Part shown: positions 2,950 to 47,435 of the stretch, in pieces
How the letters are laid out: each line of letters starts with the position of its first letter
Numbering within the stretch: position 1 is the stretch's first letter
Assembly (NCBI GenBank): GCA_964016885.1
Contig: OZ024741.1
Span: 310,372,001-310,436,000 of the forward strand
Direction of reading: 5' to 3'
Length of the DNA: 64,000 bases
Origin: Eledone cirrhosa
Taxonomy: Eukaryota
Position numbers and translations under genes: made by a program
The notes under the pieces: model-generated
Seen by the model: only the letters and a program-made list of their open reading frames with translations
Databases searched by the model: none
What the model was told of the DNA's origin: nothing

Positions 2950-4080
<1,131 letters not shown>

Positions 4081-16200: not shown

Positions 16201-16789
16201 CTGTTTCAGCGAAAGACATTTTCTTTTTTTGTGTGGTGTTGCTGTTGTTGTTGTTGTTATCGTTGTTGGAAATCTCAGTTCCTTGTCGAGGTGAAACATT
16301 ATGTGTATATATATCTGTAGAGTTGTTGAAGTCTTTTTCATGTGTATGTATGTTAATGGGTTTAATTCCTGTGTTTTCCTGTGTTATTGTTATTTTTCTC
16401 CGCTTCGACGGTAGAAATTTTAAAATTTTCAAGTGTTAATATATTTTTCTTTTTGTTGACACTTGTATCTGTGGCGACGTCCATAGTAGCAGAAGCAGAT
16501 ATAACGTTAATATCTGCCTCTTTCTCTCTCTTTTGTCTATTAACGTTCTCCAGCGTTCTTGTGTTGCTTAAGTTATTTAGTTTGTAAAATCTGATATTTT
16601 AAAACAAACTTTTAAAATAAAATTTTCGCCCCTACAGGGGCGAAACATGGGATTACCACCCAGCTGACAATTCAGCTTGGGGTTAATCTACAAAATGATA
16701 TGATTTTTTCAAACAATTAGTTAGGTTTTTTGCATAGAAATAAAAAAAAGCTTACCGGCGATGTTCCACACGTCAGATAGAAAGTGAGA

Positions 16790-18386: not shown

Positions 18387-18439
<53 letters not shown>

Positions 18440-18440
<1 letters not shown>

Positions 18441-21400: not shown

Positions 21401-23971
21401 CAACCATTTGCATTTGTGGACAGCTTAATGTTTCCTTATCATTCTGTCTAATCAAAAATCTATCTAAATACGAACTAGAAGACCCAGTGAGGTTGCTCCA
21501 CGTCCATAGTGGTGCACTTGGGAAATCTAGTCGATATCTATCAGCCAGTTGGAATTGGCTAATGACATTTTTGAGGCTATTACACCCCCCTCTATTATCA
21601 CAAGCTCCTACATAGTCCAAACGTGCGTCTAAGATGCCATTCCAGTCCCTCGCTAACACTAAGGAGCGAGACGTTCCCAGGAATGGCTCCAGACGCTTCA
21701 AGAACTCTGATCGTGATGTCCCAGTCGGGGCATATACGGCCACCAGTCTGAAAGCTCCACCTTCACTACCATTCACGTCCAGGACCACCAGGCTGCCCTC
21801 CGGGTCCAAGTGAATCGTCTGTATTTTGAGATCCAAGTTTTTTCGAAACAGAACAGCAACTCCCCCTCCACCCCCTGGCTGACAGAGAGATGCGTAGATC
21901 TCAAAATCATCGAACATGGGGCTTAGCTGCTGCTTGTTGTGAATTCTGGACTCGCTGATGGCTATCACATCTATACAATGTGACCTGAGATCATTTAAAA
22001 GCTGGCCCTGTTTCCAGGACATGCCCAGGCCACGTACATTCAAACATCCAGCTTGTATTGTCGCGATGTTGGTGAAGAAGAGTTAAGGAGAGAAAAGGCA
22101 GGAACACTTACCTTTTCGTTTCCTGGAGGTCGGGTTGTTCGATATCCATGTCCATATTGGTGGTGTTTGCGGAGGGAGGGAATCCTTTTAGCAGGAGACG
22201 GTTAAGGGGCTTTTGGCAAGGGGGGCCCACATCATGTGGGAAGTTCTCTTTTAAAGTTTCATACTGTAGGGTTGTTACCCTGATAAGTTTGAGGTTTGGG
22301 GTGGGTCGTTGGTGGGGAAGGTTTTCCCTTCCGTTTGTATTGTGGGGTCCTTTCGGACAGTTTCCACCAGTTCTTTGTTTCTTGTTTTTATGTATGTGTA
22401 ATGTGTTTTGTTTTTATGTGTACTGTTTCTGTTTGTAGTTTTCTTTTTGTGGTTGGGGTTTGTGATTGTGGTGGTGTGGGTGTTTGTTTTGTTGGTGAAG
22501 TGTTTGGTTGTGTTGGTGGTGATTGTGTTGTTGGTGTGTTTGCCGTTTGTGGCGGTGTGTTTATGGTGGGGTTGGGTGTGTGCGTCTTTTCTGTAGATGT
22601 TTTTTGTGTCTTTTTTGTTTTTTGGAATTTTGGGCATTCTCTTCATTCTCACTTGAAGATGTAGAGGCTCCCGTGTCTGAGACTTCTGAATCAGAGGTAG
22701 ATGGGAGCGGTATGTTGTGTGGCGGAGTGTTTGTGGAGGTGTTTGTGGGAGTATGTGACAGGGGGGGGGGGAGGCTATGGAGGGTTTTTCAGTGGGATTT
22801 TGTGTGTGTGGTTGTCTCTGGTCTGTGGTGGGGTGGGAGTGGATGTTGCAGGTGTTTGTGTTGTGTTTGGTTTGGAGTGTTGATGTTGGGGTTTTGGTGT
22901 TGGTAATAACACCTTGTTTGTCCTCGGTTTGTTTAAGAAAGGGCAAAAGGCCTTTAAGTGTGTGGTTTTCCCACACTTATGGCACTGAGGTCTTTTCCCC
23001 TCCACTCAAATTGAGATGACATATTCCTGAAGGACGATCCTGTCCGGTATTTTCTCAACTCTCTCTGGCCTCATTTGTACCAGAACCTCGATGCAGGTTC
23101 CAAACCAGTTATGCCGGTCTGTCCTGTCTACAGATAGGAGGGTGTCCTCATCCTTCTTCAGGATGCAGCGTAGGATCCACCATATGTTGACCTCTGTTGG
23201 GATCCTGGTTATTTTTATTTTGTAGGATCTTCTTCCCATGTATGTGGGGAAGAAGATTTGTTGATCCGTTTTTATTGGGTGAACCGAGTGTTTTTGTGCC
23301 AGAGTTTCGCTCTTAAAGAGCACTGACCTAAATATTGGGACTTTCGGGAAATGCCGATGGAGTAGTATTTAAAATCTTGTTGCTGTAAATAAAATTTTGT
23401 TATTGTTGTTGTTGGTGGTGATGATGGTCTCATTCGTTGTGTTGCCACTGATTCCTTTTGTTGTGTTGTTGTTGATCTCATTTATTGTGTTGTTGTTGTT
23501 GTTGGTTGTGGTGGTGTTAGTGTTTGCTACACATACTTCCTTCCGTGTGTGGATACATGTGACGTTTGTGACGTTTGTGACGTTAGGCGTGTTCAGTTGC
23601 TTACAAGTAGCTGAAGTTTGTTCCTCTTCTAAATGTTGAGTCGATAATGTTGGCATTCCTTTGTCCATGTCTGCTACTACCTGCTGGTCAAGTAGGTATG
23701 GCTTTCCCTTCCCATCTTCTTGTTTTGACGGAGAAGTAGATGCCTTTGCTTCAGCCATTCTTTAAAAATTGAAGTGTGTTGCAAACATTTTTTCGAATAT
23801 ATTTTGGATGTTTTTGCCCTGAGGGGCACGATATTTTGGGAGACTGACCAGATCAATATTTGACCTGTCAGTCCCTCTACAAATTGGCATAAAAATAAAA
23901 GTTCACAATGAGGAATTTCTAAAGAAATTTAAACAAAACTTACCGAGCAAGTTTAACACATGTGTCCATCC
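18440..23971 (-). mobile_element. Tx1 copy C, full length, diverged subfamily, disrupted
   Basis: ORF1 starts at MAEAKAS (23758), has knuckle CHKCGKTTHLKAFC and ends DLQETKR*. ORF2 has APE (21327-22043), RT with AYADD (~20030) and CPRC. Same 3' structure as copy A. Confidence 0.95.
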
Positions 23972-23994
23972 CAGAGATAGATAGTTAGACAAAT

Positions 23995-25072
23995 GGATAG
24001 ATTGATATCTTTCTTTATTTGCCACAGGGGCGTACAAAAATGGGACATTACAATGATGAATAACCATAAACTATATATAAAATAAAACAATCGAAACCCC
24101 CATTAGGGGGGAACGTTACTGCGGGGTTGTTTTACATCCCCGTGGATAGAACAACCATCAACACCAGGAACACGTTTTGTAGGTGTTCCCGTCTTCCTTC
24201 TGTTTATCTTCCTCAACCTACAGGTCTATATACAGAGAAGGCCCATTCACTCGGGCCATTTTCGCCACATTCAGCCACCTTTCAGCGAATTTACTGAGGT
24301 GTAGCCTCTCTTTCTCCACTCTTACCTTCCTTCTGTGGTACTTAAAGAAGGGGATAAGTTGTTGTCCGGAGAGAAAGATGTTTGCCCTCAGTCCTTTTAA
24401 CCTCGTCCACCATATTACCTCTTTCACCATAGCCACATACAGTGGAAGACCGCCTCTCCTTCCTTCTTAAATGAAGGCGGCGGGGTGATGCTCACGATGG
24501 ACTCAGCTGACAACTGGATGTGTCCTACACGTGACAGTAGCTGTTCGACATAATTCCACAGGTCGGTCACCACTGCGCACTGAACAATTGTGTGCAGAAC
24601 GGTTTCAATGTCCTGCTCACATCTTGGACAGATCCTTTTAGCAGGATCTCTGCCAGGGCGTCCGTGCCTGTAGATTTTGTCTCGAACTGGTAGAGCTCCT
24701 CGGTAGCACTGCCAGGCCAGAGACCTCTGGAAGTTATCCATAGGCCTTGGACGGAAGGTCCTCCCGAACAGACTGGTCAGTTCGTCTTCCTCGATGCCTA
24801 GAGTTTCCCCGCTTGGTAGAGGGCTGTGAGCGCCTGAAGGCACTCAAGGTGTCAGGCGCCCATTTTCGGCCTTCGCTTGATCCAGAACTGCAGCTCTGTT
24901 AGTGAGACAAGTTGTGGAAGAGCTCGTCTCACAAAGGAGAACCACACCGGTTCGCTGGTCAGGAATACCTGGAGATGGCGTAGCCTCAGCGCGTGTTTGC
25001 GTATCATCAGCCACGGTCGCCGAGCCCTCCGTTAGAAGGGTGTTGACAGCAGATGGATCTCCTCACCAATTG
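23995..25072 (-). mobile_element. Tx1 copy D, 5'-truncated 3' fragment
   Basis: ORF2 C-terminus (FQRSLAWQCYRGALPVRD...CPRC), 3' UTR and AATAAA; flanked by GATA tracts. Confidence 0.92.
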
Positions 25073-25780
25073 GAGATATATAAATAAAGAGGTAGATAGA
25101 TAGATAGATAAACACACAGACAGACAAATGGATAGATAAACTGAAGCTAAATAAATAAACCGAGAGATATATGTTGCGTTCCTTATTTGAAGAGATATAG
25201 ATACATATAAATACAGCTGTGTTATAACTTTGTGCAGATGGATATTTCATGTCAATAGTGTGTGTGTGTGGGAGATAGATATAGGACCCAATATACCGAA
25301 ATACACCCATCATGAAATTAAGACTTCCCAAACAAAACAACCACAAACTGGTTGTCACGTGACCATATATTTTCTTATCAATATTTTTAAGTGTGTTAGT
25401 TTGTATAAATGTATAAATAAACATACACGCACGCACACACACATACACCCCGCCCTCACGCACGTTCTAATTCTGGTGGCTTAGTTAGGATCTAGCTGTT
25501 GAAACGGCCGGAGCACAGCCGTCGGGGTCCTGACTCTTTTCCTATATGTATGTGTAAGTGTGTGTATTTATTTAAATTTATACTTCAGACAGTTCACTAC
25601 GAAATTCTGGTTTCCTCACGTAAGTTAAAATTTCCGTTCCTTGCTAATCTTTCATATGCGCGTGTATTGACGACTTGATATAAGTCTAGCAATAACACGC
25701 CACAGAATACACATTTAGAGGATTTTAAAAGAATATGCGTGTTGTCCTCCACCATAGTGTCCACATAAATCACAACATAC

Positions 25781-26960: not shown

Positions 26961-28478
26961 GCATCTGGTATCACTAATAATTTCCAGAGAGATATTCTCA
27001 TCGAACAATCTAATTCCTCCATTCTTATATAATTGAAATAATTAACCTAGGTAAGATCATTATTTTAAACAATATGAAATATGTTCTGTCATTTATTTTC
27101 ACTCCTTTATGTTCTGATACGAATGTGATTTTCACCGCTACTGCTTAGTCGATAGAATAAGTAACAGTCTTGTATTGCGAATCGGTTCGGTTTCTCAATA
27201 CATATGTCATGCCAGTTTATATTATTGTGGCCATGTAAGTCATATTTCTTATAGGCAATATGCCTTACGTACATATATCAGTGCTGATGCAAATTGGTAA
27301 CTATTTAAAAAATTGTTAATCTTATATAATTAGATTTCTGGATAATATATTTGATGTTACTCGGCTGAGACTTCATCAGATTGAGTGTTATCCCGTATTT
27401 TAAATTTTATTTTAACTGGGTTTGGGAAATATATAGTTATTGAGATAATATCTATAACATGATCTATTGAATAAGGATAATGCATGAGGTAAAGGTATTT
27501 GAGTGTCTTGTATCAGTCAACACTTATTTGTTAGAAAGTTATTTGAATGGTTAACATATTTATTAAAAGTGGGGATGAGAAACTTTCTTTGTGGGTGCTG
27601 GACCTGCTAAAGAAAGCAGTCAAAAACACATAATGTTGTTCGCAAGACACCTAAATATCAGTATGGTGATGACTGAATGTTTTTGATGATAGGTGTCCTC
27701 AGTTATGACTCACCTGAGCCTAAACAACAACTGAAGTGGGATAAAATTAGTAAACCCCAACTCCAGTAAATTTTACAGTTATTAAACAGGAATTTATCTC
27801 CAGATGGGTTTGAGCATGGACTAATGTAGTAGTGAAAAGCTATAATAGAATATAACATTTGGCTTCTTCATAATTAAGATATTATTTAATTTCCGAAAAC
27901 TTTTGGTTAACAGAGGCGGTAGCGCGCTGTTCTTAATGACATGTTATAATGACATTTATCCTTTCACATATACAGTTTATATCTCATTCAATAGAAACTT
28001 GACTTCCATTCTTTCGTCTCTGACAAACTTTCTATGCGTAGTGAACTTGATATATTTACATCTAACCCTCCGTAAAATTTGTGTCCTTTAATTGTGATCT
28101 TCAAAATATCTGTTTATCCTGTGTTAGTTTTAAACAATTACATCCCCATTGGAATTGTTTGGTCTTCTGCCAAATCGATGATTTTTATTATACAATCAAA
28201 TATGCTATCTGTCTAAACAAAAAATTGAAATCTAACCAAGTTGTCGTCTTACAGTTTACTTATATGTCTCTCTCTCCGTAAATATAGTACTGCACCATTG
28301 TGTTCATTGTATTCACAACTAAATCAGTTGCCTGGTTGATATATTGTCACTGTATTAGACTTCGACATATTAGACTCAATTATAAACTATTTCAATAAGT
28401 ATGCATTTGACTCGTGACATTTTGTACTTGTAACGGTATAAAAAAAAACAACTTAATATTGCTTGGGCTATAGAAAAT

Positions 28479-28919
28479 GTAATTAGCTAATCAAAATATA
28501 CTAGACCTGAAAAATGCGCAAGCTCAAAAGAGCCACAGAATGTTATAATAAACCTTCAAAAGTGTGGGACTAGAGTTGTTGCTAAAAAATATTGTAATCA
28601 TTATTTATCGTACATACTGTGGCATCCTTTTATAAAAAAGAGACTCATAATGAACTCAAGACGACACGATAATTACTTAAGCTAATGTTCAATATCTCAT
28701 ATAAGATGTTTAGTAATGATTAATACGAAATGCACGTCTTGAGTTCGTTATGAGTCTCTTTTTTCTAAAAGGATGCCACAGAGTGTACGATAGATAATGA
28801 TTACAATATTTTTTAGCAACAACTCTAGTCCCACACTTTTGAAGGTTTATTATAGCATTCTGTGGCTCTTTTGAGCTTGCGCATTTTACAGGTCTAGTAT
28901 ATTTTGATTAGCTAATTAC
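28479..28919. repeat. Fold-back/MITE-like element: 185-bp inverted arms, about 71-bp spacer
   Basis: 28479-28663 is the near-perfect reverse complement of 28735-28919. Confidence 0.85.
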
Positions 28920-29673
28920 TTTTAATTAGTTAATATAAATTTAAAAAATCATATATAAATTAACAATATAACTTAGAGAAAAATATTTTGATGATAAACG
29001 ACGAAAAACTGGAGGAAGATTCGAAAGCGAAACGATAGATAAACGTCGAAACAAAGTGGCGGATGCTGATGCTTTTGAGCAACAATTACTCTGGTTGGTG
29101 ATTAGCCAATAAGACGATACATTACAAAAGATGTTTGGGAGGCATCACCACGGCCAGCGATACCCCTTGAATCTTTTATTCACAAGCTACCCATGTATGT
29201 CAGACACGCAGACTTAAAACATTCTATTGTTAGTCACTGCGTGTCTAACAGATAGGATATGCACAATATTGAGAACTAGATGTAATACTTTACAGTTTCC
29301 ATCTTTAATGCCTGATGTATCTGTATTCAAATAACATCAAGGCAAAGCTTGTTTTAACCTATGAAACACAATTACTGTGTTGGTGTCGAAGAAATTTCTA
29401 AAATGTCCTGGTCAAATTATGAGGCAATAATTAGTCAAACGACTGCAATTAGTACATTTAATATTATACGTGGATATTATTATTTACCGAACAACCTAAC
29501 TGGGAAAATAAATATGAATATTGAAAACCCATCGCTGAAACATACGGAAGCCAATTACAGAATATACAAATATAAAACAAAATACAATTTTATTAACTCT
29601 AAATCTAAACATCAGACAGATTCAAATTCACCAATTACTTCTAACAATTGTATTGATACAAGAAATCACATAC

Positions 29674-29829: not shown

Positions 29830-29986
29830 TAATTTAATATATCAACTAACATAAGCGCACAGATGCACGCCTATGCCACCAAATACACAGGTTATGTCAT
29901 AGTACCTAGGTGGTTCAATGCAGGAGGATGCAGAACAATAATATAAAAGACGTAAAATAAGAAAATCTAGATTTTCTTATTTTACG

Positions 29987-30068
<82 letters not shown>

Positions 30069-30069
30069 A

Positions 30070-30416
30070 TTTGCCTGTAGAACAATAGGGGAGTGAGTGG
30101 AGCGGTCAAGCGTTGAAAGTGATATGTATACATCAGATTCTAAGGATAGTGTATGAAGTGGAGGAGGGACGTTATAGAATAGGTAAATCGAAAGAGAGTA
30201 GGAGACAATAAAAGATACTAGAAAGAAAAAAAAAATATATATATATAATATATTTTAACCAATCCTATTGACAACTACAATCTTCTCATATAAGGAAGTA
30301 CCCCTTTGAAAAGTTCGGCTATTTATTCACCAGGCTAAAAATTCTAATTTAGTCCAGAAATAGCTGTCGAAACGGCTTGAGCTCTGCCGTCGGGGTCATA
30401 CTTTTTCCTATATATA

Positions 30417-30464
<48 letters not shown>

Positions 30465-33400
30465 TTATATATAGGAAAAAGTATGACCCCGACGGCAGAG
30501 CTCAAGCCGTTTCGACAGCTATTTCTGGACTAAATTAGAATTTTTAGCCTGGTGAATAAATAGCCGAACTTTTCAAAGGGGTACTTCCTTATATGAGAAG
30601 ATTGTAGTTGTCAATAGGATTGGTTAAAATTTGTTGTAAACACAAATAAGTCTATTTGGTGGGTGGTAGGGGTTGCTGAACTTGCCTGTAGAACAATAGG
30701 GGAGTGAGTGGAGCGGTCAAGCGTTGAAAGTGATATGTATACATCAGATTCTAAGGATAGTGTATGAAGTGGAGGAGGGACGTTATAGAATAGGTAAATC
30801 GAAAGAGAGTAGGAGACAATAAAAGATACTAGAAAGAAAAAAAAAATATATATATATAATTAGATAGTGAGAAATTAATAAAGATATCACAATGCTATCT
30901 TACAATTACAGGTTAATAAGTTGAGAAATCGATGATGTGTTTTCGCATCGTGCGGGTGAAGCAACTTGAACTGCGTGGAAAAATCGGGATATGGCGTGGT
31001 AGAGTCGGAAAGTGCTCTACTACAGAGATAGGAGCTAAATAACAAACGAATTGTGGTAAGGAACCAAAAGGACTATAACGCACCAGTGTACTCAATACTT
31101 AGAGTAGTAGAGTGGGAAATAGGAAAAAGTATGAACCCGACGACAGAGCTCAAGCCGTTTCGACGGCTATTTCTGGACTAAATTAGAATTTTTAGCCTGG
31201 TGAATAAATAGCCGAATTTTTCAAGGGGGTACTTCCTTATATGGCAAGATTGTAGTTGTCAAGAGGATTGGTTAAAATTTGTCGTAAACACAAATAAGTC
31301 TATTTGGTGGGAAGTAGGGGTGGCTGAACTTGCCTGTAGAACAATAGGGAGTGAATGGAACGGTCAAGCGTTGAAAGTGATATGTATACATCAGATTCTA
31401 AGGATAGTGTATGAAGTGTGGGAAGGAGGTTATAGAATAGGTAAATCGAAAGAGAGTAGGAGACAATAAAAGATACTAGAAAGAAAAAAAAAATATATAT
31501 ATATAATTAGATAGTGAGAAATTAATAAAGATATCACAATGCTATCTTACAATTACAGGTTAATAAGTTGAGAATAGAAAAAACACTTATAGAAATTACA
31601 AAACAGATACAAACTTAAAGGGGTTTTTAACACATCTGCTATAAGTAGTTAGTAAAACGTATTCGGCCAATTCTATCTTAAAATAACAGGGGTGGGGGAA
31701 CTGATGCTACAAGGCCCGATGGGCTGCATCGAGGTAGGCGAAAGGGGAAAGCAGACGAGGAAGAAAATAGGGGGTGGAAGGAAGTGATAGATTGAAACAG
31801 GGGGAAGAAGGAGACAAAGAGGAAAATAAAAGAGGTATATTTACTCATGTAAGCTGGGGTTTCCTCTAACTTATTCGGCAAGTGTAAGCGGTGTATCAAC
31901 CCTTGTCTACCCACCCGGGTCGTTATAGGGTTTGAGGGCGAGGTAAGTCCTACGCAATCTGTGTTTGCATGCGGTTACCAGTTGATCTTTCTTGTTTAGG
32001 AGTTGGTCCTTCGAAAACAACATGTGTAATGTTTCCTCCGAGCATAGATTACACGGACGGCGTCCTCCCGTGTAAGAGTTAGCTCTGGACAGTGAGCTCC
32101 AAGTGAGATTGTAGGTTATATTGTTATCTTGGAGGTCTCAGATGTAGCCCGAAAGTGTAGTGGCATGTTGCCGAACCGGGTTTTCGGAAAATGTGTCGGT
32201 GTTGGTAGAGCCGGGTCTTGAAGTCACATGCGGTTAATCCTATATAAGCTTTGTCGGAGGTGTCTGTCCTGACGTTGGACTGGTAGATCACGTTACGTTC
32301 TCGGCATTTGTTGTTGAGGGGGCACGTGGATCTATCAGGGCAGTTAAACCTCCTGGTCGGCTCTCCACTGATGTCTAGGTTATTTCTTCCATAGGGGTTG
32401 AGTTTTTTGTTCTTTTAGGAGACGATGTTTTGTGCGAAGTTAGGTCTGGTGCTGTAGGAGAGTTTGATGGTGTTTTTGTTGATTATGTTGTGGTAGCGGT
32501 GTTGTAGTAGAAAGTGTTTTTCGAGGAGTCTAAAGAAGATTTACCCGATAGGTGTTGCCACCTCGGCATTGTGGGGAGGATTGAACCACGTTACGTTGCG
32601 TGAGCGGCGGTGTCGCCTGTTGGTTCCGCTAAGGGAAGCTGGATAAAAGGATATTTCCTCCCGGAAGCCACTCCGCTTGAGGGCCTGGTTGTAATGAGGC
32701 GCGTGTTCGTCGAATATCTGCTCATTAGCGGACAAACGAGATATGTGGAGGGAGATGTTTTTAACCAGGTTATTGGTGATGTTTCTAGGATGGTTAGAGC
32801 GGCGGTGGATGTAGTGCAGGTTGTCGTTTGGTTTCCTGTATGGGTAGTACAGATCATTTTCGAGGTTAAGGGTAGCGTCCAGGAAATTGACTCGGGTTAG
32901 GGACGTTTGTAGGGTGATTTTAAATCCCCAGTCCCGGAAGAAGTTGATTAGTTGTTTACGGACCCGGTCTGTACTACTGGGGTTGTACCCTTTGAGGGTG
33001 AGGAGCCCATCATCCCGGTACAATCCACGCCGAATGCAGGAAACATTTCGGTGAGTTTAAATAGTAGGAATAATCCTATAAGATCTGTGACCTCGGCCGA
33101 ATCCATCACGCCCATACTGACGTCGAAGGGGGATTCGGGAGCTCTCTTTATCCACTTGGAGTTGTCGAAAAGTAGGACTGTCTTCCTGGCGGGGAGAATG
33201 ATATTTCTTTCCTGGTCAGTAATGGGCGTGAGTGTTTCAGCAAAGTCCAAGTCGACCGTAGGAGCGGTAAGATAATAGTAACTCTCTATGTCAAACTGGA
33301 TGAATTTTGTGTCTCGTTTGTGCTCCATATTCCTGAACCATGAGATTACTTCCAGGGTGCCGACCATAAGCTAAGTCTCACGTTTTGCTTAACTTTTGGT

Positions 33401-34860
33401 ATAACTCGGTCTAGGATCTTTTTACAGATTCTCCCTATGTCCGACTTCGTTGGGTTTATAAGCCTAATGGATGGTATGCGGTCGAAGTCGGATTTGTGGT
33501 CCTTCAGTGTGAAGTAGGGAGTCCGTGGGTCTAGGGGTTCAGTGCGCTCGGAGACCCCGAGTCTGGAGGTAATTTGTTGTCCGTCTCGATTTATGTCCTC
33601 GATAATTGAATGGTTAGCCTTTTTATAGGCGGAGTTTAGGCTGCTCCTGATCAGTGTGTGGTATCTGTCAGGGTTAACGAAGTAGAGGTTTCCAGTTTTG
33701 TCCGAGTGCACCATGATGTCGTTGGTGTTTTCATACTCTGTTATTTTGCTACGGAGTTGTTGTAGGAATGTGTTGTGTCTGGGTTTGAATTTAATGCTTT
33801 TGACCAGGTGGAAAAGGTCGTTCTCGAAGGGTGAGAGCATAGGGTTCGGAGGGCGGATTTGTAGGTATTGAATCCAAATGTCTCCTTGGTGTCGAAGTCC
33901 AGATTGTCGCAGTATCTATCGTAGAAAAAAGTTCTCTATCTTAGTCTTTTCGCAAAAAGGTCGATTTTTTGCGTGATCATTCGAAGGTAAAGTTTTGTCG
34001 GTGGAAGTGGGATGTTCTTGGTGGAGAATTCGATGTTGTGTTTTCGCATCGTGCGGGTGAAGCAACTTGAGCTGGGTGGAAAAATCGGGATATGGCGTGG
34101 TAGAGTCGGAAAGTGCTCTACTACAGAGATAGGAGCTAAATAACAAACGAATTGTGGTAAGGAACCAAAAGGACTATAACGCACCAGTGTACTCAATACT
34201 TAGAGTAGTAGAGTGGGAAATAGGAAAAAGTATGAACCCGACGACAGAGCTCAAGCCGTTTCGACGGCTATTTCTGGATTAAATTAGAATTTTTAGCCTT
34301 GTGAATAAATAGCCGAATTTTTCAAGGGGGTACTTCCTTATATGGCATGATTGTAGTTGTCAAGAGGATTGGTTAAAATTTGTTGTAAACACAAATAAGT
34401 CTATCATGGCATTTGGTGGGAGGTAGGGGTTGCTGAACTTGCCTGTAGAACAATAGGGGAGTGAATGGAACGGTCAAGCGTTGAAAGTGATATGTATACA
34501 TCAGATTTTAAGGATAGTGTATGAAGTGTGGGAAGGAGGTTATAGAATAGGTAAATCGAAAGAGAGTAGGAGACAATAAAAGATACTAGAAAGAAAAAAA
34601 AAATATATATATATAATTAGATAGTGAGAAATTAATAAAGATATCACAATGCTATCTTACAATTACAGGTTAATAAGTTGAGAATAGAAAAACACTTATA
34701 GAAATTACAAAACAGATACAAACTTAAAGGGGTTTTTAACACATCTGCTATAAGTAGTTAGTAAAACGTATTCGGCCAATTCTATCTTAAAATAACAGGG
34801 GCGGCGGAACTGATGCTACAGGGCCCGATGGGCTGCATCGAGGTAGGCGAAAGGGGAAAT
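30070..34860 (-). mobile_element. Penelope-like element (probably Hydra-clade-like), near full length, with tandem and inverted pseudo-LTRs
   Basis: Disrupted ORF ~34050-31850 (FSTKNIPLP, HSDKTGN, RLINPTKSDIG, QFDIESYY, FDVSMG..DSAEV, YRDDGL, VNFLDATL, WFNPP, CPLNNKC, YIGLT). Pseudo-LTR copies at 34020-34860, 30920-31790 and 30466-30920; inverted copy at 30255-30415. Confidence 0.93.
30300..30396 (+). ncRNA. Hammerhead ribozyme, U3-A8 core variant with long stem II (further copies on minus strand: 30486-30582, 31134-31230, 34235-34331)
   Basis: acccct-TTGAAAA-gttcggctattt...aaatagctgtc-GAAA-cggc ttgagctct gccg-TC-ggggt. Confidence 0.75.
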
Positions 34861-34924
34861 GATTACGCAAATTAATAGAGTTCTTACTTTTTAGTATAAA
34901 GATTTATTATTTATATATTATTTC

Positions 34925-35115
34925 GGGCGGTGAATTGGCAGTATCGGTAGAGGGTCGGGCGCCATGCTTTGCAGCACAGTTACGTCCCTTTACGAACTGA
35001 GTTCAAATCCCACCGAGGTTAACTTTGCCTTTCATCCTTACGGCGTCGATAAAATAAAGTACCAGTAATACACTGGTATAATTGCTGGCCTTGTGCCAAA
35101 AGTAGAAACAATTAT
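34925..35115 (+). mobile_element. Nin/Deu-like SINE
   Basis: Same consensus as 26555-26960, with 5' 'ggcggtgaattggcagtatcggtagag'. Confidence 0.85.
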
Positions 35116-35619
35116 TTATATATTATTTATACTAAAAAGTAAGAACTCTATTAATTTGCGTAATATTTTATTTAGTTCTTGTAAACATCGTTTCAACTCA
35201 ACTTTTAGATATATATATAAAATGTAATATATGGTTCATCTCCTTTACATAACGGTTTCCATATCCAACCACCTACAACTTCATCCCTCAGATTATATCT
35301 ATATATGATTCATATATATTTAATTTACTTTCTATTATCTCTACTTCATAAATATACTTTATATTATTACACTTATCAATAGATTGTAACCTTTTTATAT
35401 GACTACTTGAAATTCTTTTAAGAAAAATTCTAAAAAGTTTTCCTTGAAAAACTTTCTGAAGGTTTTAGATAATTCTTGGTAAAACTTTTGAAAGTTCCTT
35501 TGAAAGATATGGCAAACCCATTATTTTCATATCTTCCAATATTTTATACCTTCAAACATTTTTAATATGTATCCAAATATTTATATATATGTGGAATAAC
35601 GTTTTTTTTTTTATATATA

Positions 35620-35845
35620 TGTGAAATAACCTATGGTTTATGTTTTAATTATATTCTTAAGATACATTTTTTAACTTTATAACATTTATGACTTCTTATA
35701 AAATAACCTATGGTTTATGTATTAATTATATTCTTAAGATAAATTTATGACTTCTTATAAAATAACCTATTGTTTATGTTTTAATTATACTCTTAAGATA
35801 ATTTTTTTAACTTTTTTAACTTTATAACATTTATGACTTCTCATA
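35620..35845. repeat. Short tandem repeat (3 units of about 55-75 bp)
   Basis: 'aaataacctat.gtttatgt.ttaattata.tcttaagat' x3. Confidence 0.8.
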
Positions 35846-36144
35846 AAAAAAAAAAAATAAAAATGTTTTTAAAGGTTTTTTATGTATCCTTGGAGTCATT
35901 TGAGTTCTTAAAAAATCACTTCTAACTTCCTTTATATTCCCTTACTGTTTTTATAATCTAATTAAGTAGTTATTCCTTTGAAAACTCTCGTAAATTTTCA
36001 TAAATTTGGAATTATTTGGATGTTTAAGTTTTGACTTACAACTATTAATAAATTCAATTTTGCCAAACTTTCTTTAATCAAATAAACCATACTAGATTTT
36101 CTCAAATGTAAAATACTATATATTTGAATAATTTATAATCCATA

Positions 36145-36312
36145 ACATACCGGACACCATGCTTTGACGCATAGAATTATGGCCCTTGCCATTCTGAGTT
36201 CAAATCCCGCCGAGGTTAACTTTGCCTTTCCTCCTTACGGGGTTGATATAATAAAGTTCCAGTAATGTACTGGATAATTGCTGGCCTTGTGCCAATAGTA
36301 GAAACAATTATT
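36145..36312 (+). mobile_element. Nin/Deu-like SINE, 5'-truncated
   Basis: 'ctgagttcaaatcccgccgaggttaactttgcctttc...gccttgtgccaatagtagaaacaatta'. Confidence 0.8.
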
Positions 36313-36906
36313 ACTAATACATCTTAATATAATATAAATACTTCTGTTTTAATTTTAATTTTTAATTTTTAATTTTAATATTAATATTAAATTAAATTTT
36401 TAATATTAAATTAAATTTTAATCTTTAATTTTGATTTTTAATTTTAAATCATATTTTTAAATATTTCATTTTCAATTTATCATTATAAATATTATAATCA
36501 CAACATAATGAACCCTACATTCTGAATGTTATTCTTCCACGTTAATCTTATTTCTTCTTTCACTTCTTCTTTCACTTAGGTATATTTACGTTCTGTATAT
36601 TCTTCCATTAAAATTTATTTCCTCGTTCACTTTAATTATCTTCATTATCACTATGTATAATCGTTCTTTCTTTCTTTTTCTCTCTTTCTCCTTCCTTTTC
36701 TTCTCTCTCCCTTACATATCCTCTTCTTCCAACAGTTTAATTTAAATAAACCGTTATCTTTTCAATTTTTCGGACACTCATTTGCATACTCACTCATAAC
36801 TTTGTATTACCCTCAATAAAATATTATCTCCACTATCCAGAAAGCTCCAACCGTTAAGGTTGTCTTTTTTCCGGGTATGTCAATATTTATTTATAAAACA
36901 AATCTG

Positions 36907-36972
36907 TATTTTATCTGATGAGAGCGCACCATAATTTGCCTTGGTTGCCCTTAAAATAAATATAATAAAATA
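36907..36972 (+). ncRNA. Degenerate hammerhead (related to 45119-45189)
   Basis: tattttat-CTGATGA-...-AAAA-taaata-TA-ataaaata: 8-bp stem I intact, GAAA box mutated. Confidence 0.5.
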
Positions 36973-37034
36973 AATATGGTTTTATAAATATAGTTTCCAT
37001 TTATTAATATATTGTATATATCTATATCTATATC

Positions 37035-37101
<67 letters not shown>

Positions 37102-37102
<1 letters not shown>

Positions 37103-37378
37103 GATCAGGAAAGAAGAGTGACACGGGTTGCTATACAAAAAAGGTTTTTAACCTCAGATTAAAAACCTTTTTTGTATATCAAACCGTGTCACTCTTCTTC
37201 CCTGATTTATTATTATTCAAAGTGTTTACAACATAGGAATTACAGCGTACTCGCAGCATCACTATGGAAACGCCTTGTTGAGCCAAACTTAGCCAAGCGT
37301 TGATATCATCCACTACCCGGAGTACCATAACTGGACTACACCTAAGTGGACTACCTATAACAATAATTTGTTACCCCG

Positions 37379-37380
<2 letters not shown>
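37102..37380. repeat. Short PLE-type footprint with terminal hairpin (37102-37206) between (TA)n tracts
   Basis: Inverted arms of about 50 bp: 'atcaggaaagaagagtgacacgg...aaaaggtttttaa' versus 'ttaaaaaccttttt...ccgtgtcactcttcttccctgat'. Confidence 0.7.
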
Positions 37381-37407
<27 letters not shown>

Positions 37408-37409
<2 letters not shown>

Positions 37410-37779
37410 AAAAAGGGATGAAATCGAAAATGTAACTGAAGTCTTATTTTTAAAAAAAAATATATATATTTATTTGGTTCCTTTACCGGTTTCGCAGTTC
37501 TTCTGCTTTTCAAAAGGTGAGTTGAGATGGAGGGTCTGTGGTTTTTCTCACATGTGATTCATGGATATAGAAACCGTTATGTAAAGGATGTGAGAAAAAC
37601 CACAGACCCTCCATCTCAACTCACCTTTTGAAAAGCAGAAGAACTGCGAAACCGGTAAAGGAACCAAATAAATATATATATTTTTAAAAAAAATAAGACT
37701 TCAGTTGCATTTTCGATTTCATCCCTTTTTCTCGTGTAGGACACCTCGGTTATTTTTCATTTTGTAAAAAAACCCTCAC

Positions 37780-37785
<6 letters not shown>
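37408..37785. mobile_element. Inverted-duplicated PLE terminus with a hammerhead in each arm
   Basis: Arms 37408-37552 and 37588-37732 are reverse complements; flanked by (TA)n. Confidence 0.85.
37624..37661 (+). ncRNA. Minimal hammerhead, U3-A8 variant (mirror copy 37480-37517, minus strand)
   Basis: cctt-TTGAAAA-gcag aagaa ctgc-GAAA-ccgg-TA-aagg; palindromic, loopless stem III. Confidence 0.85.
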
Positions 37786-37837
<52 letters not shown>

Positions 37838-37854
37838 ATATCAATTTTATATAC

Positions 37855-37986
37855 CTTGGCAGTTTATACCCTTATAACCTTCATCACATCCATCTGAACA
37901 TATTCCAAATCGTTTGTCACAGTAAAAGTTGTTGACACAATGGCATGTCCCTTCACAAGCAGCACCAAACATTCCAAATTGGCATT
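37855..37986 (-). CDS. EGF-like (MEGF10/Draper-type) exon: ECQFGMFGAACEGTCHCVNNFYCDKRFGICSDGCDEGYKGINCQ
   Basis: attttcag| acceptor, |gtat donor, 132 nt, phase 1-1, 8-Cys pattern C..G.FG..C...CHC.....CD...G.C...C..GY.G.NC. Confidence 0.92.
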
Positions 37987-38342
37987 CTGAAAATATCAGT
38001 ATATATGACAATGTTGAAGTTATAATTAATTACATACAGATATAAACGTGTTATCAATGTTATACCATATCAATAAGATTAAATATAAGTTTAAAGTGGT
38101 GATAAACAAATGAGTCTGAATACAACTATTAAATAATATATTGATACGGTACATTACAGAGAGAGGTTTTAAATTTATGTAAAAGCATAAAATCAATTTT
38201 ACAATATCTTATGAACTCATGGAAAAAATGAACATATAATTAGAAACATTGCATGTACAAATATCAGAATTCTTTCCTTGAGTCAGTTCTACTTTAATTA
38301 TTAGTGATATTCTTACATTTAACGACAATAATTCAATATATA

Positions 38343-40820
38343 TCTATATATATATAAAGGGAAGATGGACATTGTTTGGTGTTCCCAACTTGCATGCTAC
38401 ACCGTTCATTGAATTTTCATGAAAACTCACACATATATAAAACTTAACGCGTAGAGTGGAATAGGCTACTTGAAATTTTCGAAAAATCGATAATCGGGCC
38501 CTATGACAGAATGTTTTTCGATTCCAATGAAATTTTATGTGAATTCGAACACAAGAACTCTTAGTTTACATCTGGCGCAATAAAAATAAATTTCATATGC
38601 CCATATAAGGACGTGCGTTATTGATTGGACGGCCAGCTGCATGTCTTCCCAGCTGTCCCAGTAAACGACCGACCATTAAAGAGTTTATCTTTTCATATTC
38701 CACCTTATTCAAGTGGAAATACAGTATTATCCCTATCTGAAAAGGGAACCAAATTTAATGGTGTCTTTTGTGATGCTAAAAGCTGTGAGTAAATTTTCAA
38801 ACAGTCTTAAATAATCATGCTTTTTTAAAAAAAAAATTACTAAATAATACGTTGACCAAGTTGTATTGTACACATACAGAGTTGTAAAAAATGTTACTTC
38901 CGTACCAATGTTTTCCTTTTTTAAACAAAAGATTCTAAAAAAATTACTTAATTTATAATACAGTCTTTTGCACAGGAAGTGAGTAACTTTTCGTGTGTTT
39001 AAACGTAAGTTCACCAGGGTTTGTGTCTTCATTATTAGCCCACCTCTAATGGCATTTTTTGTTCTGCTTACGACTAAATGTTATGAGCAATTAATTGCGC
39101 ACACGTGCACACCTGCATGCAGATAGTCACTGACAGCCAATAAAAAATCGATAACTTGCTTATTAAGATATCGGTCAAAAAGAGAGATTGAATGTACTTT
39201 AGAACATTTTTTGAATATATTGTTCTTTTTGGCATGATATGTCAGAAATATAGCTACTATACACTTTGGTTATTTTTTGTAACTAAAAAACGGTTCCTTT
39301 TGGGTGGATATTTAACGAGAAAAATCCTAGGGTTTTGGACAAATTTGTTTCAGGCGCTGTATAGACGCCTATTTTGTCACACCTTGGTCATGAATTCGTA
39401 TTCTTTTCCAATAGATATTTTCCGCTCTATAAGGCTCACCAGGATATAAGGCGTATCATTTAAAATCAGGTCCGCGCAACGGCGTGTAAGGCCAACCAAG
39501 AAAATGCTATCTTCTTTACTTTTAGTCTAGATCTATTACTTCTGTTAGAGCCGTGATTGATTACCATTGTATTATTTATACAGAAGGCTCACCGGAGTAT
39601 AAAGCGCAGAGCTGTTTTTTGATTAAATTTAATTAAGTTATTGTAATCATATTTCCAAACCTTCCCATTCACCAGTAACCATGCTAACGAATCTGGTGTC
39701 ATCTCTCTCTGTATTTGATCACCTCTCTCTAACCTAACAGCTTCATTACACGTCGTTATTCCCAAACGGAAACGTTCAAGACTTACCTCCAAAATAGGTA
39801 CAGCTACTGCTTTGAGACAACGAATTAGGCGTTCTCAGGTATGAGTTCATTCACAATTGATTAATCCTTTATGCAATATTCTCCCTTAATGTTAGCAAGT
39901 ACTGCGTTTATCCTAACTGTCACAACTTTTAAGCAACTACAACATTCTAATCGTAGTTATATTAAATATATTGTCTTACCTTGATTCCCTTTTGTTCATG
40001 TTAGACTTTTATCATTTACTATTGACACTGCCATTGGTTTAGCTAACCAGTAAAATTAATTAATTTTCTCTAGGAAACACCTGCTGAGCGCGAATCTCGA
40101 CTCGCTGATAGACGTCTTTCCCGGCTGGTTGAGTCACTAACATCACATACGACAAGGCTTGCTGATGTTCGCCTTCGTCGCCAACAAGCGCTGACGGAGG
40201 AATCACCAACATCCCGTCAGACGAGGCTTGAGGCTGTGGCAAAGGGCAATAACCCTAGATACAATTTTGATCAACTTTTTTTCACCTTTAGCAAATTTAC
40301 CGGGACAGGTTTTTAGCTACTCAAATCTACTTCAGAGATCACGCATTGATGTAAAAAATCAATAAAACTGAAGCGGGGCTCGACTTTGCGCAAAAAATAA
40401 GGCAAAGTTACACATGGGAAAACCTTTTACAGGAACGTCCTATATTCTTGAAAACTGCCACAAAAGACTCGCCATTATGCCGCGGTTAAGATAAAGGCCC
40501 TTTTAATTCTTCTTCTGCAAATGTGAGCGCAAAAATTGTAAAAAAAAAAAAACCTGAAAGTAATCGACATTTTCACCCTGCTTCAAATTAACTGAACATT
40601 CAATATCAAGCGATTTTGACTTCTGTCAGTCGTGCAGAGAACAATTTCAACGATACACTGTGTAACTACAATTAATAAATTACATACCTGTGTCTACTAA
40701 CCTATTTTTCTTCATTGAAGTTCGAAGTTTTGAACCTGTGATGCGCGGGAAGTAATTTTCACACATTCTAACAGACCAAAGGTCGACTTACACCCGGGCA
40801 ACGCCGGGTACTTCTGCTAG
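38343..40820 (+). mobile_element. Non-autonomous Helitron
   Basis: A^TC(TATATA) 5' end; 3' GC hairpin acccggg-caa-cgccgggt followed by CTAG^T; internal STPR-like Rep/Hel N-terminal remnant. Confidence 0.88.
39758..40250 (+). pseudogene. Spliced N-terminal remnant of a Helitron protein (STPR-like repeats)
   Basis: Exon 39758-39838 (I/M)PKRKRSRLTSKIGTATALRQRIRRSQ |gtatga...ttttctctag| exon from 40074 ETPAERESRLADRR...EESPTSRQTRLEA. Confidence 0.7.
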
Positions 40821-40841
40821 TATATATATATTTATATATAT

Positions 40842-40933
<92 letters not shown>

Positions 40934-40934
40934 A

Positions 40935-41581
40935 GGCTTTTAATTAAGCATACAGGGTATTGCAAAATATACTTTATATACATTCATATATATATATATC
41001 GTTATTTCAGAGCACCAATTCTAATTTTCAATTTCTGCTTGACCGGCAACCGCTGTGTATAATCAGTTCCTGATTATTACTAGAATTCTTTAAGAATCAA
41101 ACATTCATAATTTTCAGCAAACAGGTGGAGTACTTGGCTTTGATAAGTACCAATCAGTACGAAACAGAGCTCTGCCAGCTTTATGCCCCCTGTTTGCTTA
41201 AAGTTTAAAGTAAGTGAGACTGTAACTACTCTAAAACAATAGGGTAAGGTCTTCGAAATGCTTTTCATTAAGCATACAGTGTATTGCAAAATACACTATA
41301 TATACATTCATATATATATCGCTATTTCAGAGCACCAATTCTAATTTTCAATTTCTGCTTGACCGGCAACCGCTCTGTATAATCAGTTCCTGATTATTAC
41401 TAGAATTCTATAAGAATCAAACATTCATGATTTTCAGCAAACAGGTGGAGTACTTGGCTTTGATAAGTACCAATCAGTACGAAACAGAGCTCTGTCAGCT
41501 TTATCTCTCCTCTTTGCTGAAAATTTAAAGTAAGTGAGACTGTCACTACTATAAAACAATAGCGTAAGTTCTTCGAAATGC
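40935..41581. repeat. 320-bp tandem repeat (2 units; array resumes at 46670-47090)
   Basis: 'tatttcagagcaccaattctaattttcaatttctg' at 41003, 41323 and about 46785. Confidence 0.85.
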
Positions 41582-44500
41582 AATACACATCCCAACAACA
41601 ACAGACACACAGACACAAACAACGATAACAACAACACACACATCAACATCAACAATAATAACATACCCAGAAACAACAACGACAGACACGCAGACACAAA
41701 CAACAATAACAACACACACAACAATAATAACATACACGGAGACAACAACAACAACACACATCAACAACAGCACACACCAACAACAACAACAACACACACA
41801 CATTCTATGCCTCTCACCACCACCACAATCTTAACAAACACACAGACACAGAAAACATGTAATGACAGTAACACAGAAATAAGGGAAGGTAATAGGATTG
41901 AAAGGAGAAGGGAGCCTATCAATACTGACAGAGAAAATAACCAGGACGAACACACAGACACACTAAATAGAATAGATAATAACAATGAGTCAGAGGAAAG
42001 AGACAGGAGTAATAATGAGAGATATAGAAACAACCATGAGTCTGTTGGTGGAAATAGAAATAGAAACAACACAACTAACAACAACAATAGCAATAGTACA
42101 CATAACGCAGCAGCCTGGAACTCTACATTTTATAATCCTTCCGATAAGTCTTTCGACCTACGACGAGTCCAATCCCACGACTTTAGCTTTTAACAAACGC
42201 ACGCAATTGCCGTCGCAGGTCGATGAACAAACAGAAGCACAATTTAGTATAGCTAGATCTAAACTTAGAAATATTATAGAACAGTATAGCAAGAAGCAAA
42301 GTAGAATGGAGACCCAGTAACTGGGAGAAAAATCTGCAAATGGCTTGCGTAAGCTCATGCGGCGCTCGTGTAATGGAGAGATTGCATGCTTTCCAACAGA
42401 CAAGTCTGGCAGAATGTCGGTTGACAGTCTGTCAAACTACATCCAGGCAATGCAACCCTACATCACTAACACAAGAGAAGTAACACCACAAGAGCATGAG
42501 GATAGGGAAACAACCGTCAATGCTCATATGATGATGTGGACAAATATAATGCAGCCCAACAAAAGGACTGCCAACAACTTCCAGGCCTGGATCAATGACG
42601 TGCCAGCGTTGTTTGGGCTTCGAAAAGACCATAAAACAAGCAGTGACGCTGTCACAGGACCACAAACACGGCCAGTCTGTGGAGCTAACATTGCTAGTAT
42701 CTACAGACTTTCCTAATTCCTCTCCCTGATCATACGCCCCATCCTTGAAATGTCCCCAGATATATGTGACAGCACGGAGGACCTCCTCAGCAGAATCGAC
42801 GAGAGTAACCGATCTAGGGACCTAACAGACTGCACAATAGGTAGTATGGATGTTGTGTCCCTATATCCATCTATTAACGTGGATTTTGCTGTGGAGAAAT
42901 GCGTAGAAATGATCAGTGAGAGCAAGGTTGAATTCCGTGGGATTGATACCAGTGAGCTGGGACTCCTACTTAAACTTACCTATAGTAATGATTATCTAGA
43001 TACATATGACCTTAGCAAACTGTGCCCTACAAGAGCAGCAAGAGGCAGACCACCTACCATTACCTCAATGGCCAAGAAAACCCACACAGATAGATGGAAC
43101 GTGTGGACCAGAGCCATACGGACCCCGAAAACCACGATGAACTAAAGAAAATGATTGCACATGCGGTGGGGGCCAGTATAAAATTAACCCTTAAGGAATA
43201 TATGTTCAAATTTAATGGAAAAACATATGCCCAAAAGGAGGGAAAAACCATTGGTGTTTGCATTGCAGGTGACATAGCTAACCTATTCATGGTATGGTGG
43301 GACAATAGACTTAAACTTAAACTTAAAGAACAATTAGAAGACAGCAACCTCTTAACCCTGATAATGTACTCCAGCTACGTTGATGATATAAACATCGTAG
43401 TAAACCTCCCCACTAGAGAACAGTCAAGAATTAGAGAAAAACACCACGGAAAGCATCCAACAAATAGCTAACTCCATCACCAGAGTATTAGAGTTACTAT
43501 AGACTACCCAAGCAAACACCCCAATCATCGATTACCTGTGCTAGGCACAGAGCTCTGGTTAGATACCATTAATAACAAAAAACAAATCCTCCATTCCCAT
43601 TATGCCAAACCCATGACTTCCAAATATCTGATCCACCGAAACTCAGCTGTTTCGGACCATACCAAAATCAACATACTGATTGCGGATTCGGTACGGGTGA
43701 TGAGAAACGTGTCCCGCATGTGCAACCCCGAAGAACTAGAGAGACACATACTACACTTCATCCACCGTATGCAGTTCTCTGGTTACAATCAGAGAGATAA
43801 AATCAGAGTATATAGAGGAGCCAGAACCAAATGGGAAAAAATGGTAAATAATGATACAAATGGGACCTGCCCCTTGTATAGGAGCAAATTTTGGAATAGA
43901 ATAGAAAGAACTAGGAATAAGGTTAATAGAATAAACTCATGGTATGATATCAATAAATACCAGAGTGTAATGTTCATCGATACAACTCCTAGAGGTGAAT
44001 TAGCTTACAAATTTAGAAGGGCCCTAGATAAACATAAACTCAATATTAAGATAGTAGAAAGACCAGGTACCTCCATAAAAACACTTATTAGCAATACATA
44101 CCCTTTTCAAAGACCTCCCTGTATAGATAAGAAATGTATAATCTGTAAATTAAGCCCCCATGTTAACTGTAAAACTAGAAATGTAGTGTATAGCATAAGA
44201 TGTACTGAAGGACAATGTAGAGATAAGAATATAGCACATAGGTGAGACAGCTCGTAGTATAGGAGAACGGATAAATGAACACTGGCGAGAGCTTCAAGAT
44301 AGTAAAGAATCATCTGTACTCCACCAACATGCTAAAATAGAACATAAGTGTAAATTAGAGAACATAGAAATAAAAATAGAAGCTACACACAGAAAAGACG
44401 CAATGTTTAGACAAATCACAGAGACAATAAACATAAACGAACTCCAACCAAAATTAAATAGAAAACATGAATGGAACAGCAACATCACAACTTACAATTA

Positions 44501-44895
44501 AGGACAAAATGAAAACACACACGTACATAGAACAAACAACCAACCGGTAACATGGAAATAAACAAATAAGTTAACAAATATAAACACACACAGACACCCG
44601 GATGTAACACATGCGCAAACTAAGCACACAACACACACAAAAACAAGATGGCGTAGGACAGAACAAAGCAGAGGCACAAAAACAAAGAAACGAATCCCAG
44701 TCACTGAAGAGGTCACAGAATGTGTGACGAAAGAACTTTGACAATATATGAACAATTGTCTGGTTGTGGAATCAATCAACCAACCGGAAATTTATAAATT
44801 GCTAAATTTATAAATTTAATTTATAATAAATTGAAGTGAAAGCAACTGGTGCGTGTGTTTCTCATTGGGAACATGACCCTCCCAAAGTATAACAA
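41582..44895 (+). mobile_element. Penelope-like element (second family), near full length, disrupted
   Basis: PTDKSGR, LFGLRKDHK, TRPVCGA, GSMDVVSLYPSI, YAQKEG..IG, YVDDINIV, HYAKPM, then CK..NVVYSIRC...IGETARSIGERINEH (GIY-YIG). Ends in (TA)n. Confidence 0.92.
44700..44742 (+). ncRNA. Minimal hammerhead (second copy 53065-53107)
   Basis: gtca-CTGAAGA-g gtcaca gaatg tgtgac-GAAA-g aa c-TT(TA in copy 2)-tgac. Confidence 0.8.
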
Positions 44896-45045
44896 TATAT
44901 ATATATATATTATTAGAAATGTATTCTGTCGCCGTATTTTGACTAAAGAAATTAAAGAAATTATTTAGCCTGATAGTGGGGTTAAGAACCCTCGGAGAAA
45001 TTGAAAAAGATGAGTATTGACGTACATGGGAGCCGAAAATATTCT

Positions 45046-46590: not shown

Positions 46591-47077
46591 TATGTATACT
46601 CCAGTCCTACAAACTGTAGAATGCTTCTTATCCGATATCTGCATTGCTTTATTGTACTACTACTGTGTTAAGTAAGCGACAATGTCGCTACTTTTAGACA
46701 ATAGCGTATGGTCCTCAAAATGCTTTTAATTAAGCATACAGTGTATTGCAAAATACACTATATATACATTCATATATATATCATTATTTCAGAGCACCAA
46801 TTCTAATTTTCAATTTCTGTTGGGCCGGCGACCGCTCTGTAAAATCAGTTCCTGATTCTTACTGGTATTCTATAAGAATCCAACACACATAATTTTTGGC
46901 AGACGGGGGGAGTAGTGATTTTTGAAGAGTACCAAAAAGTACAAAACAGCGTTGTCAACTTATCTCACCCTGTCTGCCGAAAATATAAGTAAGCGACAAT
47001 GTCCTTACTTTAAAACAATAGCGTATGGTCTTCAAAATGCTTGTAATTAAGCATACAGTGTATTGCAAAATACACTA

Positions 47078-47435
<358 letters not shown>

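Follow-up and report, generated by a model that had tools for sequence, protein, structure and literature searches.

Hammerhead motifs with a U3-A8 core in a Penelope-like element and other repeats of Eledone cirrhosa

Published U3-A8 hammerheads and the Eledone locus

In the hammerhead ribozyme, C3 and G8 form a Watson-Crick pair that keeps the ribose of nucleotide 8 in place at the scissile phosphate. We analyzed 64,000 nucleotides of Eledone cirrhosa DNA (GenBank assembly GCA_964016885.1, contig OZ024741.1, positions 310,372,001 to 310,436,000 of the forward strand; this whole stretch is the window, and positions are counted from its first letter) in which a Penelope-like element (PLE) and other repeats carry hammerhead motifs with U3-A8 in place of that pair. 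Natural covariation from C3-G8 to U3-A8, together with prior in vitro activity of 3-8 covariants, was treated by Perreault et al. 2011 (section 8; PMC3088659), a general survey of core variants with no tie to PLEs in the passages covered. Cervera and de la Pena 2014 (PMC4209133) described U3-A8 in motifs of Cercyon PLEs of Schistosoma mansoni and about 1,300 S. mansoni matches to a U3-A8 descriptor, and descriptors allowing U3-A8 have been in use since that year. The novelty implied by a sequence-only reading of the window thus does not hold: the U3-A8 hammerhead in PLEs is already published, and the locus adds examples and no new mechanism.

The Eledone motifs resemble those of Cercyon (PMC4209133) in being type I hammerheads of PLE repeats with U3-A8, a 4-bp helix I, G10.1-C11.1, a palindromic helix III that requires a dimer, close pairs of motifs on opposite strands, and mostly truncated copies. 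They differ in that helix II of the minimal Eledone motif has 4 bp, against 7 to 8 bp in Cercyon, with no unpaired base between positions 9 and 10.1, and in that the helix II arm of a long Eledone motif measures 56 nt and its helix III 5 bp; the host also differs, and so does the PLE clade in the case of the long family. The second close system is the Hydra clade of PLEs (Craig et al. 2021, PMC8557442), which shares with the Eledone element a C-terminal endonuclease (EN), the DKT motif, a Cx5C linker, CxxC, CxH, a Cys-free GIY-YIG core, (TA)n targets, a sense-strand hammerhead 3' of the open reading frame (ORF), and truncated copies in tandem and inverted arrangements, which are common among PLEs (PMC8557442). 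In contrast, the Hydra-clade motifs in the rows of File S2 of that paper, like 17 motifs that we found at related loci, have C3-G8 and helix II arms of at most ~25 nt, and the long Eledone element differs from the Hydra-clade examples in its U3-A8 core, its 56-nt arm, its 840-bp pseudo-long terminal repeat (pLTR), and its 3.1-kb unit. Our literature search, File S2 of PMC8557442 included, retrieved no U3-A8 Hydra-clade hammerhead; the supplements of PMC4209133 and PMC3088659 were outside its scope and may hold closer examples.

The window is AT-rich animal DNA with many (TA)n arrays and decayed retroelements. Four copies of the long motif (A to D) and both copies of the minimal motif have the core N3-U-G-A-N-N8-A with a Watson-Crick 3-8 pair, reading UUGAAAA, followed by GAAA, and they also have the A15.1-U16.1 pair and an NUH triplet (GUC in A to D and GUA in the minimal pair). 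A descriptor scan with any base allowed at positions 3 and 8 recovered A, B, and the minimal pair, and C and D were found by a relaxed scan only. The strict descriptor gave five U3-A8 matches and one C3-G8 match across the window, compared to a mean of 0.05 U3-A8 matches in 20 local shuffles, and a simple pattern matched 3 times where 0.02 matches were expected. The window motifs are therefore genuine type I hammerheads with U3-A8 in the core. An origin of the motifs by chance in AT-rich DNA, or of the copies by fold-back during assembly, might still be suggested by the several palindromes of the window and by A and B, which are exact mirrors including the flanking TA. We regard this explanation as extremely unlikely, and for the motifs it is largely refuted, not only by the shuffle and pattern controls but also by the position of C, D, and a fifth long copy (E) outside palindromes, by the thousands of records that carry the minimal motif, and by opposite-strand joints at position 37587 in 6, 4, 0, and 4 records of four public runs.

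Long and minimal hammerhead families

Copy A of the long hammerhead (30302-30395, plus strand) has U3 at 30306, A8 at 30311, and a predicted cut after 30391, at the end of GUC. It combines a 56-nt helix II arm with a 5-bp helix III whose loop contains a GAGCUC palindrome, and its stem I continues beyond a bulge. Copy B (30487-30580, minus; predicted cut, 30491) is its mirror, identical over 127 of 127 nt, and the two form the arms of one palindrome centered on a (TA)n array at 30409-30473; copy B stops ~20 nt past its predicted cut, in (TA)n. Copies C (31136-31227, minus; U3 at 31224, predicted cut site 31139) and D (34237-34328, minus; U3 at 34325, predicted cut site 34240) lie in the downstream and upstream pLTRs, respectively, of one element; D is C with two changes in helix II (2 of 128 nt), and both differ from A and B at 7 to 9 positions. 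The four copies reported from sequence alone thus have the core, GAAA, helix III, and NUH triplet in each case but represent only two genotypes. The older copy E (3152-3242 within 3049-3372, minus; U3 at 3237) is 78% identical and keeps U3, A8, G10.1, and a 5-bp stem I; with G5 replaced by A, it is presumably dead as a ribozyme. Variation in the long family is known from these five copies, all of which keep U3 and A8. The retained Watson-Crick 3-8 pair agrees with the proposal that the change is compensatory, a state of the family and not private decay.

Copies C and D belong to an element with an upstream pLTR at 34021-34859 (minus, ~840 bp) that is 97% identical to the downstream pLTR at 30920-31750 (minus). 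A decayed ORF for reverse transcriptase (RT) with, at its C terminus, an endonuclease of GIY-YIG type (31958-34049, minus) runs from an ATG at 34049 to ~31958, with several stops and frameshifts, and is collinear with full-length relatives of 711 to 720 amino acids. It retains DKT, GLYRDDGL (YRDD), the Cx5C linker, YIG, CxxC, and CxH and has no Cys between VIY and YIG; the first Cys of CxCX5C is replaced, and a stop stands in place of the W in the RW motif. A 171-amino-acid piece of this ORF had 415 relatives among 730 candidates, the best 57% identical, and among the relatives of at least 680 amino acids (52 of the 120 listed), RW[KR] occurred in 50, DKT in 51, and CxCx5C in 46 when these patterns were sought anywhere in the protein. 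Pfam gave no match for the ORF pieces tested or for five relatives; the domains are therefore named from their motifs and from the published description. Further pieces of Hydra-type PLE ORFs, detected by tblastn, lie at 49072-51404 (minus), 59688-60636 (plus), 157-672 (plus), 63352-63996 (minus), and 46221-46565 (minus).

From these motifs and from insertion into (TA)n, we assign the long family to an EN+ PLE of apparent Hydra type. The element shows the (TA)n insertion of the Hydra clade, its pLTRs hold the hammerhead, and tandem and inverted truncated copies are present; it lacks the canonical C3-G8 of Hydra hammerheads, which is reported as a common trait and not as part of the clade definition (PMC8557442). 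An identity as Nematis or Neptune was considered and dropped on that definition. Next to the element, a 5'-truncated partial pLTR (30471-30927, minus) holds copy B, and a pLTR fragment (30071-30249, minus) that is identical to 30682-30860 at 179 of 179 nt is joined head to head to the inverted arm with copy A, with a (TA)n target array (29992-30070) at the left end. The partial pLTR, the mirror arm, and the 179-nt piece share a sequence type that is ~4% different from C and D; therefore, they may represent one compound insertion or a local rearrangement.

We used an alignment of 17 relatives and the window piece to obtain 77 related metagenome loci, with the best 80 retained out of 446 confirmed candidates. 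By the strict descriptor, 15 of the 77 contain hammerheads, 17 motifs in total, each of them C3-G8 and on the sense strand, whereas the U3-A8 pattern occurred at none of the 77; 62 loci, many of them ending close to the ORF, had no motif. The Hydra rows of File S2 are also C3-G8 in 26 of 26 cases, although the search behind them used the canonical descriptor (PMC8557442). Since the motifs found at the sampled loci and in these rows all have C3-G8, U3-A8 is probably derived in the lineage of the long family. A long helix II has a PLE precedent in PLE-X1_sMoe (~52 nt; PMC8557442 File S2), and helix II measures 36 nt in a C3-G8 motif of the window itself (45119-45189). Two of the related loci contain two hammerheads each, identical in one case (L021, positions 75 and 2522; a pLTR pair) and different in the other (L016, positions 2758 and 5350). 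By eye, we also noted that the helix II internal-loop sequence CACCAG is complementary to a CUGGUG ~50 nt past the cut in copy C (31119-31230, minus, and on to ~31080), which might allow a pseudoknot; the corresponding complement in copy E contains a G.U pair.

The minimal hammerhead (37624-37661, plus) has U3 at 37628, A8 at 37633, and a GUA triplet ending at 37657, with a 4-bp stem I, UUGAAAA, a 4-bp helix II with G10.1-C11.1, and a palindromic ACCGGU helix III. As first read from the sequence, this 38-nt motif has a mirror copy (37480-37517, minus), and the descriptor scan recovered both. They lie in a head-to-head inverted insertion (37408-37785) of two 5'-truncated repeat ends, with arms at 37408-37553 and 37588-37732, a ~55-nt tail on the right only, and flanking (TA)n at 37379-37406 and 37786-37832. 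To follow this family in public data, we mapped 4 of the 9 runs listed to 37556-37780 with a likeness threshold of 80%, and these yielded 2,761 and 2,628 contigs from one sample, 5 contigs under another organism label, and 1,716 RAD-seq reads from another study; no RNA run was among those listed, which carries no information on expression. In the raw-read run, ~710 reads cover the core bin. Letters other than that of the window reach at least 5% at 25 positions, none of which is U3 (37628), A8 (37633), or another core base; the variable sites are in the outer stem I (37623-37624), the last helix II pair (37638), position 37647 (one contig), and the flanks. The change at 37623-37624 is common. 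Of stem I, only the 5' strand entered these counts, and contigs drop rare variants. With neither C3 nor G8 at 5% or more, U3-A8 is the consensus of the minimal family, and the alternative of a C3/G8 consensus found no support.

Upstream of 37587, other copies of the minimal family continue for hundreds of bases, and they terminate in (TA)n near 37785; therefore, the window copy is the truncated end of a longer, abundant element. Because an inverted 5'-truncated pair with a one-sided tail in a microsatellite matches an architecture described for PLEs (PMC8557442), we infer a PLE-type terminus. No blastn similarity to the long pLTR was found. Thus, of the earlier description of two unrelated PLE termini, the PLE identity is established for the long family and the two families lack blastn similarity, but for the minimal family the identity is drawn from architecture. 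Judged from comparison of the copies, U3-A8 is the inherited state of both the long and the minimal families.

Predicted cleavage and possible function of the U3-A8 hammerheads

We give a probability of roughly 65% to the reading that these are PLE type I hammerheads in the published U3-A8 version, inherited in both families, with the copies at this locus being mostly passengers. U3-A8 replaces the Watson-Crick pair of C3-G8. In an intact master element, a read-through transcript would self-cleave behind the GUC of each pLTR, and cuts at 34240, a site 191 nt before the ATG, and at 31139 would release a unit RNA of 3,101 nt, with 191 nt preceding its AUG; unit-length release by hammerhead cuts has been proposed for PLEs (PMC4209133). 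For the long helix III, the predicted energy is −6.5 kcal/mol in a single copy and −26.9 kcal/mol in a pairing of two, and its 5 bp would allow monomer folding as well as pairing between copies. The minimal ACCGGU helix III would form solely between two copies, so cutting would be slow and would occur only in tandem or paired RNAs; the predicted hammerhead fold of the homodimer is −18.9 kcal/mol (cofold minimum, −20.3), compared to +0.7 kcal/mol for the monomer shape.

The majority sequence over the three long genotypes reads as an intact U3-A8 hammerhead, but each genotype departs from it somewhere. In A and B, stem I has 4 to 5 bp plus the extension past the bulge and helix III has 5 bp, and a reading with a bulged U before U3 and stem I starting from 30300 fits equally well. 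Their G10.1-C11.1 is a lone pair, as in E; in A and B it stands over a 2x1 loop, and the constrained fold did not form it. The hammerhead fold of A and B lies at −29.7 kcal/mol, compared to a minimum of −32.8 (a gap of 3.1). In C and D, the proximal stem I is only 3 bp long, one of the 5 bp of helix III is a G.U pair, and G10.1 is missing; both copies fail the strict descriptor. The initial statement that the core and stems are otherwise intact was thus not confirmed. A and B are the best candidates for activity, although their ribozyme would be made before its complement and would have only a short cotranscriptional window in which to act. At the inverted minimal locus, the antisense arm comes first in any transcript, which should collapse into one long hairpin (predicted at −247.9 kcal/mol); the minimal pair there is probably silent for this reason. 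The broken ORF, the absence of G10.1 from C and D, and this trapping are what would make the locus copies mostly passengers. Because the stems of C and D are weakened, the minimal pair is dimer dependent and palindrome trapped, and the ORF is dead, ribozyme function of these particular copies appears doubtful.

Several observations weigh against the inherited-hammerhead reading as a whole. A replaces G at position 10.1 in C and D and produces an A.C mismatch with 11.1, and their minimum-energy fold forms neither helix I nor helix III. Copy E has lost G5, and the pair changes among the long copies are only G-C to G.U, with no true compensatory change. In the minimal family, variable positions are no rarer in the ribozyme than in the upstream flank at a significant level (2 of 32 versus 7 of 37; P = 0.16), no ORF for the family was found at the locus, and a 20-nt piece of its 5' continuation is absent from the window. 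PLE minimal hammerheads cut poorly in vitro (PMC4209133), and an anole PLE inserted in vitro without a need for hammerhead cleavage (PMC11167929).

Part of this evidence would fit fossil ribozymes, in which useful cleavage was lost with the core change or later, U3-A8 is uniform because a few masters were recently amplified, and PLEs move without cleavage. In the anole PLE, insertion in vitro was unaffected by mutation of the hammerhead, and RNA ends at the cut site were not observed (PMC11167929); Naiad PLEs proliferate without canonical hammerheads (PMC8557442). Damaging changes are present in each of copies C, D, and E, and there is no significant excess conservation. However, loss of function does not readily explain why two separate pair-restoring changes were fixed in three families without mutual blastn similarity (a third U3-A8 family is described below), why the majority sequence has an otherwise undamaged core, or why the 78%-identical copy E still has U3 and A8. 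On balance, we consider the fossil explanation a serious one but unlikely.

The motif might alternatively be kept as a folded RNA signal, for example, for the RT-EN protein, for dimerization of the transcript, or for the start of reverse transcription, with cleavage being incidental. Insertion ends occur 20 to 130 nt downstream of the hammerheads, helix III is self-complementary in both families, and the long family has an additional two-part helix II arm, all of which would suit such a signal. The exact catalytic core and the NUH triplet would be superfluous in a structural signal, and the long family has variable 3' ends (equivalents of 34021, 34137, 34220, and 34439); we therefore find this role very improbable. 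Slightly less improbable, but still speculative, is that U3-A8 is a repeated outcome in this genome, selected as a slower core that leaves sufficient more-than-unit RNA uncut to serve insertion, with the 56-nt two-part helix II acting as an undescribed tertiary module that tunes or rescues the rate. A literature search on hammerhead cleavage with C3U plus G8A returned no match, and the literature covered, which did not include Lunse et al. (PMC5785218), held no cleavage rate for a natural U3-A8 PLE motif. What hammerheads do in PLEs is an unsettled question in the field (PMC8557442, PMC11167929).

Other hammerheads of the window and their annotation

A third U3-A8 family is represented by a motif at 41456-41500 (plus) with the core UUGAUAA, a palindromic 12-nt helix III, and a GUC ending at 41496. 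It lies in a two-unit tandem repeat of 320 bp (40931-41581, plus) without an ORF of its own, and the motif of the other unit (U3 at 41140) is broken by a GCC triplet. This organization is like that of non-LTR retrozymes (PMC7229834; Li et al. 2026, 10.64898/2026.07.22.740005), a likeness limited to the third family and to a repeat in which one of two units has a broken triplet. Its helix III resembles that of Hydra-clade motifs. A decayed relative at 46922 (46670-47100, plus) has TTGAAGA, which gives U3.G8, and a broken GAAA. The three U3-A8 families share no blastn similarity, and together with C3-G8 families at 1770/7032, 44700/53065, and 45119, they make 3 of the 6 hammerhead families in the 64-kb window U3-A8.

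Among the C3-G8 type I motifs, those at 1770-1830 (minus) and 7032-7092 (plus) form an inverted pair 5.2 kb apart, the motif with the 36-nt helix II is on the minus strand, and a further one at 36909-36970 (plus) looks decayed. Directly after the 320-bp repeat lies a decayed PLE-like RT-EN ORF of another type (41555-44900, plus), and the 3' end of that element has a different, minimal C3-G8 hammerhead (44700-44742), with a second copy at 53065-53107. Other repeats include short palindromic insertions, several of them adjoining (TA)n (28475-28923, 29941-29996, 37100-37210, and 4231-4371), two copies of a tRNA-type SINE-like repeat (34935-35116 and 36140-36312, plus), which we take to resemble octopus SINEs, and a decayed cluster of LINE-type ORFs (9859-25466, minus) with AP endonuclease, RT, and zf-RVT matches.

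At the gathering score, Rfam gave no hammerhead match anywhere in the window, the C3-G8 motifs included, and over 30200-41700, no hammerhead family was among the 45 matches up to an E value of 10; the subthreshold matches were models of miRNA hairpins fitting palindromes. We also built a search model from 13 of the 17 C3-G8 motifs of the relatives. This model found the C3-G8 motifs of the window (E values of 1e-6 to 0.013) and placed the third family at an E value of 3.7, but it detected neither the long nor the minimal motifs up to an E value of 5. The expectation that CUGANGA-type searches miss the long and minimal motifs was thus confirmed with both approaches, and when repeats are annotated with CUGANGA descriptors or C3-G8 models, hammerheads in this genome will, to judge from these motifs, be undercounted.

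What is mildly new here is the Hydra-type setting, the 56-nt helix II, and the presence of three U3-A8 families in one window; the frequency of U3-A8 in this genome may be new as well. Helix III of A and B is predicted to be stable enough for a monomer assay of a natural U3-A8 PLE ribozyme. If U3-A8 does prove to be a selected, slower core, matched families with U3-A8 and C3-G8 would provide a natural test set for the role of the hammerhead in PLEs.

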